Shown here piece by piece: positions 26,568 to 26,746 of a stretch of 33,910 bases of DNA; position 1 is the stretch's first letter; each line of letters opens with the position of its first letter. The notes under the pieces were generated by a model. The model ran no database searches, had not been told where the DNA came from, and saw nothing but the letters and a program-made list of their open reading frames with translations. This DNA comes from Escherichia coli (GTDB lineage Bacteria > Pseudomonadota > Gammaproteobacteria > Enterobacterales > Enterobacteriaceae). The stretch is from NCBI RefSeq assembly GCF_003334355.1, contig NZ_QOWP01000036.1; one strand, written 5' to 3'. Made by a program: the position numbers and the translations under genes.

Positions 26568-26746
26568 AGAACTTCCTGTTTTAATTATTGATTATCCTTA
26601 ATCATAAAAATAATGTATGTATTTATTAATTAAATACATATTACTAATATAAATAAATTTTGCTTGATTCATGCAAGCGGCATTAATACTATTTATACTA
26701 ACGTCAATATACAACCCACCCAATCTATTTTATTAGAACATACATC
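26568..26746. promoter_or_regulatory. AT-rich divergent gspAB / gspC-O control region (reported H-NS-silenced in K-12)
   Basis: 179 bp, strongly AT-rich, between divergent gspA (ATG at 26567) and gspC (GTG at 26747). Contains a 9 bp inverted repeat ATGTATTTA-TTAAT-TAAATACAT at 26616..26638. Confidence 0.6.

Follow-up and report, generated by a model that had tools for sequence, protein, structure and literature searches.

The divergent gspA-gspC spacer of Escherichia coli as a probable H-NS-silenced control region with a palindrome in its A/T core

The 179-bp spacer between the divergent gspA and gspC genes very probably controls the cryptic type II secretion locus of the chromosome, the gspAB / gspC-O cluster beside rpsJ, and its features are, with the same high probability for the explanation as a whole, best accounted for by back-to-back promoters that are silenced by H-NS, with a palindrome that belongs to the A/T core and is not a dedicated operator. 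In K-12, the genes for the Gsp secretion system and for ChiA, its substrate, are a textbook case of cryptic genes; silencing by H-NS and counter-silencing by SlyA are well documented for the region. An H-NS-silenced divergent gspAB / gspC-O control region is an already known system, and the evidence set out below supports this assignment. The main reading has already been published. The additions made here are modest: a predicted -35 hexamer lies in the palindrome, conservation of the spacer is above that of the genes, and within the spacer conservation is lowest in the segment that holds the palindrome.

Gene context and base composition of the spacer

The spacer (26568-26746) was studied within a 33.9-kb window, the whole stretch of DNA that was analysed. 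On its left lies the coding sequence of gspA (25098-26567, minus strand; 489 aa), the first gene of gspAB, and on its right that of gspC (26747-27562, plus strand; 271 aa, GTG start), the first gene of gspC-O; both were placed from the open reading frame list and RefSeq annotation, which for gspA was that of an identical K-12 record. Because gspA ends at 26567 and gspC begins at 26747, the spacer is exactly 179 bp long, a length that the original prediction had given and that the gene coordinates confirmed; it is also the fragment used in the published SlyA EMSA. A stretch of 551 nt around the spacer was 100% identical to K-12 records annotated as gspA / gspC, and rpsJ, rplC and rplD were located upstream of gspB, the partner gene of gspA, which is the known chromosomal context of the secretion cluster.

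The same 551-nt stretch was detected at an identity of at least 95% in 3,142 of 5,426 complete E. coli genomes, that is, the gspA-gspC junction was present in 58% of them. Since a distant-mode BLAST search of 'E. coli' genomes returned no strongly diverged gspA-gspC alleles, about 42% of strains appear to lack the locus or to have lost it by deletion.

Disrupted versions of the locus were also observed. The gspA gene of strain S43 (NZ_CP010237.1) was annotated as a pseudogene with an internal stop; the spacer of this strain was intact except for A26685T, a change within the predicted gspC promoter spacer. A natural E. coli isolate (NZ_CM194533.1) carried IS1 inside the spacer at 26677-26685, with a 9-bp target duplication (GCGGCATTA), exactly between the predicted gspC -35 and -10 hexamers. 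As this insertion splits gspC from the A/T core and the palindrome, the gspC promoter could have been killed, or replaced by an outward promoter of IS1. Another record (NZ_CP172152.1) had IS1 at 26900-26909 within the 5' end of gspC, just beyond a second AT-rich tract that is described below, and its annotated gspC was truncated. When genome contigs were searched with the GspA query, two records bearing the names of other genera were found to contain plainly E. coli gsp sequence, namely a long-read contig labelled Flavobacterium paronense (NZ_JAUFQN010000012.1), which held gspA, the spacer and gspC with many single-base indels, and a 273-bp fragment labelled Alkalicoccobacillus porphyridii (NZ_VLXZ01000212.1). 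These probably represent contamination of those assemblies and, being contaminant-looking, they were dropped as comparison loci.

The GC content of the spacer was 0.229, compared to 0.497 for the whole window, and the spacer was the lowest-GC 179-nt stretch of the entire window, the runner-up having a value of 0.335. GC content fell to 5-10% at 26600-26660, directly over the palindrome. The second AT-rich tract (26780-26880; GC 0.17-0.28) was located inside the 5' end of gspC; this tract and the spacer make up about 390 bp of low-GC sequence, with the A/T content of an H-NS-silenced promoter region. Consistent with these values, the proposal that the spacer is far more AT-rich than its flanks held, and the further proposal that its composition resembles an H-NS nucleation site agrees with the observed AT-richness, to which the tract at 26780-26880 adds.

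The best matches to the H-NS high-affinity consensus TCGATAAATT, which is attributed to Lang et al. 2007 and is itself A/T-rich, agreed at eight of ten positions; they were located at 26650, 26802, 26804 and 26834, the first of them being TAAATAAATT (26650-26659, plus strand). For matches with at most two mismatches to this A/T-rich motif, the density in 26568-26950 was about 10 times that of the whole window.

Divergent promoters and their regulation by H-NS and SlyA

Two back-to-back sigma-70 promoters, with -35 and -10 hexamers at a spacing of 16-18 nt on each strand, were predicted in the spacer. The predicted gspAB promoter (26601-26629, minus strand) comprised a -35 hexamer TTAATA (26629-26624), a 17-nt spacer and a -10 hexamer TATGAT (26606-26601), and the predicted gspC-O promoter (26664-26692, plus strand) comprised TTGATT (26664-26669), again 17 nt, and TACTAT (26687-26692). 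These are the hexamers that were predicted for gspAB and gspC by Shimada et al. 2014 (PMC3946193); for gspAB, the consensus scan agreed with that study independently. The two -35 hexamers were separated by about 34 bp of nearly pure A/T. Because no mapped transcription start site for either gsp promoter was found in the searchable literature, the promoter positions given here are predictions, and the start sites of both promoters, near 26594 on the minus strand and near 26700 on the plus strand, are those that we infer. A small inverted repeat, GCTTG-ATTCATG-CAAGC (26662-26678), was observed between the predicted gspC -35 and -10 hexamers and was scored as terminator-like on the minus strand by the scan; as it is broken in E. 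ruysiae (CAAGC to CAACC), it is probably not functional.

The core promoter elements were conserved in relatives. The gspC -10 block, TAATAYTATT, was invariant in all seven lineages compared, down to a GspA identity of 40%, and in E. ruysiae the gspA -10 hexamer and leader were conserved and the -35 hexamer was altered from TTAATA to TCAATA. In syntenic loci at 40-45% GspA identity, gspC-D-E and gspA-B were again divergent, and rpsJ came next on contigs that reached that far. The spacers of these distant loci were also AT-rich (GC 0.34-0.39 vs about 0.50), and they shared with K-12 the TAATAYTATT block, a TTGC/TTGA -35-like element and the start-codon region.

Conservation of the spacer as a whole was assessed within E. 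coli from eight alleles, counting K-12. Over some 1.1 kb, each of the seven divergent alleles had 2-26 differences from K-12; the 179-nt spacer accounted for 0-1 of these and the flanking coding sequence, about 950 nt within 26100-27220, for 1-26. Nucleotide identity to E. ruysiae was 85% for the spacer, 77% for gspA and 65% for gspC, which argues that, judged by sequence identity, the control region as a whole is under stronger constraint than gspA and gspC, the genes that it controls. When the spacer was divided into segments, identity to E. ruysiae was 89% for 26568-26612 and 92% for 26646-26746 and only 59% for 26613-26645; this last segment, in which the palindrome lies and the SlyA box begins, was the least conserved of the spacer.

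The search with the GspA protein returned a tight cluster at 75% identity that consisted of Escherichia ruysiae and cryptic Escherichia clades. Among the proteins from which the allele groups were drawn (P0001, P0002, P0006 and P0017-P0030), two tight groups were observed with none between, the E. coli group at 97-100% identity and the E. ruysiae / cryptic clade group at about 99% within the group. A GspA identity of 75% gives the impression of being well below the usual core-gene identity of two such close species; if this impression holds, the divergence of GspA would suggest either that it has evolved fast or that the whole locus was exchanged long ago.

Published data bear directly on the silencing of these promoters. 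H-NS repression of the gsp promoters, with derepression in an hns mutant, was reported by Francetic et al. 2000, as that work is cited by others. The gspC-O genes were described by Curran et al. 2017 as a cryptic unit under H-NS repression and were marked as H-NS-associated in the ChIP data of Kahramanoglou 2011 and Oshima 2006. In the IPOD-HR preprint, the gspA-gspC spacer was the sole prominent non-RNA-polymerase occupancy peak of its neighbourhood; that preprint regarded H-NS repression as already demonstrated and the binding site as not precisely placed. The spacer was included, with an 'HNS' flag, among the RpoD-holoenzyme SELEX "constitutive promoters" of Shimada et al. 2014, and gspA(-)/gspC(+) was one of the 78 "promoter islands" of Panyukov & Ozoline 2013, where it was H-NS-associated and 392 bp in length. 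The sequence, like these four more recent sources (Curran 2017, IPOD-HR, Shimada 2014, Panyukov & Ozoline 2013), fits the original prediction that both gsp promoters are H-NS-silenced in K-12. Peaks of the RpoS- and RpoF-holoenzymes were also located by SELEX within gspC and within gspA (Shimada et al. 2017); taken with the second AT-rich tract, these intragenic peaks suggest promoter-like sites of the kind that H-NS usually suppresses.

In the EMSA of Curran et al. 2017, SlyA shifted the exact 179-bp spacer fragment at an apparent Kd of 50-100 nM. Overproduction of SlyA led to a 2.4-fold increase in gspCDEF expression, and the authors proposed a SlyA box, TTATATTAGTAA, 79 bp upstream of gspA. 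On the strand analysed here this candidate box reads TTACTAATATAA, the reverse complement of TTATATTAGTAA, has the form TTA-N6-TAA, and occupies 26641-26652, where it abuts the right arm of the palindrome. A regular-expression search identified it as the single occurrence of TTA-N6-TAA in the spacer, outside the palindrome. The pattern arose in 44% of spacer shuffles, and the published box was on this count rejected as a significant motif. In E. ruysiae the K-12 box was lost and a different box (TTAATGCGTTAA) was present 9 bp to the left; the box was accordingly neither beyond chance nor positionally conserved in relatives. The palindrome does not supply a SlyA site of the expected form, since its centre is TTA-TTAAT-TAA, with five intervening nucleotides, and does not match the SlyA consensus TTAGCAAGCTAA / TTA-N6-TAA. 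H-NS association, binding of the fragment by SlyA and 2.4-fold induction of gspCDEF have been shown in the literature; the exact positions of H-NS and SlyA in the spacer are putative.

Taken with the composition, the promoter-like hexamers and the conservation that were observed in this analysis, the published data are best explained by the following mechanism. Two back-to-back sigma-70 promoters would direct transcription of gspAB leftward and of gspC-O rightward. H-NS would nucleate on the A/T core of the spacer and on the second AT-rich tract at the start of gspC, and this nucleation would hold both gsp promoters off. SlyA, a dimeric MarR-family protein that is able to bind this fragment, would in part lift the silencing of gspC-O. 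The palindrome, at the GC minimum and on the gspA -35 hexamer, would most likely be a portion of the A/T core that is contested by H-NS, RNA polymerase and SlyA.

The palindrome: structure, symmetry and possible roles

The palindrome was a perfect inverted repeat, TATGTATTTA-TTAAT-TAAATACATA (26616-26640), with 10-bp arms at 26616-26625 and 26631-26640 on either side of a 5-nt TTAAT. The original prediction of a 9-bp palindrome at 26616-26638 was correct as to its existence and its TTAAT centre, but the coordinates were one base off and the arms were too short; the 9-bp core arms, ATGTATTTA and TAAATACAT, are located at 26617-26625 and 26631-26639 and extend to perfect arms of 10 bp. Being centred at 26628, the palindrome contains the predicted gspA -35 hexamer within its centre, and roughly 59-84 bp separate it from the predicted gspC start downstream.

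Shuffled sequences were scored for a perfect inverted repeat with arms of at least 10 bp and a loop of 0-12 nt. A dyad this good was obtained in 2.3-2.4% of dinucleotide shuffles of the whole spacer, in 3.6-3.7% of shuffles of the AT-rich core alone, and in 4.5% of block-wise shuffles that preserved local composition. The palindrome is real, weakly distinguishable from chance and modestly unusual, and these statistics are not compelling because the feature had been chosen by eye out of the whole window. A full-text search of the searchable literature returned no paper that contained the palindrome sequence. Generalised, the dyad follows the pattern TGTATTTA-N5/6-TAAATACA; the region upstream of chiA, which encodes the substrate and is silenced along with the gsp genes, had no half-site or dyad of this kind above background. 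To our knowledge, the dyad gives no convincing fit to the consensus sites of Fis, IHF, ArcA, TyrR, NagC, Fur or LysR-type regulators.

When folded as RNA, the plus strand of the palindrome gave a moderately stable hairpin, of -9.1 kcal/mol (z -3.4) in K-12 and of -6.5 kcal/mol (z -1.9) in the E. ruysiae version, which has a U-G wobble at one of the changed pairs; in both, the minus strand folded less well. The stem consisted of A/U pairs except for one G-C pair, no U-run adjoined it, and the search for an Rfam family returned only a chance miRNA match (E 0.31; 21.7 bits vs a gathering score of 74). Without a G+C-rich stem and an adjoining U-run, the palindrome is not a terminator, and this possibility was ruled out.

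Nothing alignable to the palindrome was found in the distant syntenic loci outside Escherichia. One of these loci (L008; GspA 45%) had an 18-bp perfect A/T-rich inverted repeat, TATATTTATAATTATTAT...ATAATAATTATAAATATA, at spacer positions 239-284, which was unrelated in sequence to the K-12 palindrome. The called gspC start of L008 looks too far downstream, so this repeat is probably within the 5' part of L008 gspC.

The corresponding segment in all seven E. ruysiae-type contigs was AATGCATTTA-TTGATA-TTAATGCGTT, with a centre of 6 nt, compared to 5 nt in E. coli. Eight of the ten pairs were kept in this dyad, six of them unchanged and two changed on both sides, from T:A to A:T at 26616/26640 and from T:A to C:G at 26620/26636; of the remainder, one pair had become T/G and one was broken. 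In a simulated decay in which six random substitutions were placed on the perfect dyad, at least eight of ten pairs were kept in 1.6-3.0% of trials. Within E. coli, the sole variable position of the palindrome was 26620, which was changed from T to C in two of the eight alleles. This change breaks a pair, and it occurs at one of the two positions that co-vary in E. ruysiae. In a neighbour-joining tree built from the coding sequence on either side, with E. ruysiae as the root, both C26620 alleles were placed near the base of the E. coli alleles, and parsimony did not decide between C and T as the ancestral state. T26620C would be compatible with an intermediate state between the E. coli and E. 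ruysiae dyads, and the comparison, which covers two independent lineages, gives a hint that the symmetry of the palindrome itself may be under selection.

There is close to an even chance that the palindrome is simply a chance product of near-pure A/T, contributing no more than A/T content and a -35-like hexamer. Complementary pairs come easily at a local GC of 5-10%, and up to 4.5% of composition-matched shuffles yielded such a dyad, for a feature chosen by eye. The palindrome segment evolves fastest in the spacer and is absent from the distant syntenic loci, and a pair-breaking polymorphism is segregating in E. coli. The two both-sided changes that preserve symmetry in E. ruysiae do not fit so readily, as a pure 'A/T filler' view would not predict them, and the segment is otherwise nearly invariant within E. 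coli. A second reading, which we consider rather doubtful, sees in the palindrome the dedicated operator of a dimeric regulator, which could be SlyA or some other activator or anti-silencer and would balance both promoters. Such an operator would overlie the gspA -35 hexamer, with the predicted gspC start about 72 bp downstream of it; a perfect 10-bp dyad has a chance expectation of 2-4.5%, and a SlyA dimer binds the fragment, in which the proposed SlyA box abuts the dyad. The retention of eight of ten pairs in E. ruysiae, with two both-sided changes, against 1.6-3% under random decay, and the co-variation in that species of position 26620, the lone E. coli-variable position, also speak for such a site. 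However, the centre is TTA-N5-TAA, unlike the TTA-N6-TAA of SlyA, and the 1-bp change in half-site spacing in E. ruysiae argues against a rigid dimer site, since such sites rarely accept a change of this type. The segment is also the least conserved of the spacer (59% vs 89% and 92%), does not align outside Escherichia, has no similar site upstream of chiA, and matches no sequence in the papers covered by the full-text search; two of eight E. coli alleles carry the pair-breaking T26620C, and the symmetry was compared in only two independent lineages. It is unlikely that the dyad is a selected 25-bp operator at which a dimeric anti-silencer, SlyA or another factor, switches cryptic secretion on, with compensatory substitutions keeping the symmetry and T26620C as a segregating intermediate.

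It is very improbable that the palindrome acts as a nucleic-acid structure, whether as a hairpin in the RNA of a long gspC leader or as a cruciform that A/T-rich DNA would extrude under supercoiling. The fold of the plus strand (-9.1 kcal/mol, z -3.4) is better than that of the minus strand, the both-sided changes and variable loop length are stem-like and unlike a protein site, and a rightward promoter-like sequence, TAGACA-16-AATTAT, is present at 26561-26588, from which such a leader could start. However, the deeply conserved gspC promoter is downstream of the dyad, which lies between the two predicted core promoters and would therefore be transcribed by neither; there was no match in Rfam and there were no terminator features, and ten A/T pairs make a short arm for a cruciform in vivo. 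The preferred reading remains that of H-NS-silenced back-to-back promoters with the palindrome as part of their A/T core. Should the dyad be a real operator, the natural inducer of the cryptic Gsp system could be approached through it; the natural T26620C alleles and the E. ruysiae version represent ready-made symmetry mutants.

Comparison with known systems

The H-NS-silenced gspAB / gspC-O promoters of K-12 (Francetic et al. 2000, as cited by others) are the very same locus, with the same genes and the same spacer. Compared to the SlyA counter-silencing that operates at hlyE/clyA and fimB, the gsp spacer is likewise AT-rich, H-NS-associated and SlyA-bound, but its candidate SlyA box is unremarkable (44% of shuffles) and is not positionally conserved. 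The second E. coli type II secretion system, encoded by yghJ-pppA-yghG-gspC-M, is reportedly repressed by H-NS and StpA. That cluster is a different locus, located between yghE and yghF and truncated in K-12, and it has a different promoter region; its regulation was the subject of Yang et al. 2007, as cited by others. With respect to the 'promoter islands' of Panyukov & Ozoline 2013, the 392 bp that they give is close to the roughly 390 bp of low-GC sequence observed in this analysis, although the mapping of coordinates is approximate. Unlike a generic promoter island of redundant promoter-like sites, the gsp spacer has a gspC -10 block that is conserved across genera, and at least one promoter of this island is therefore under real selection.
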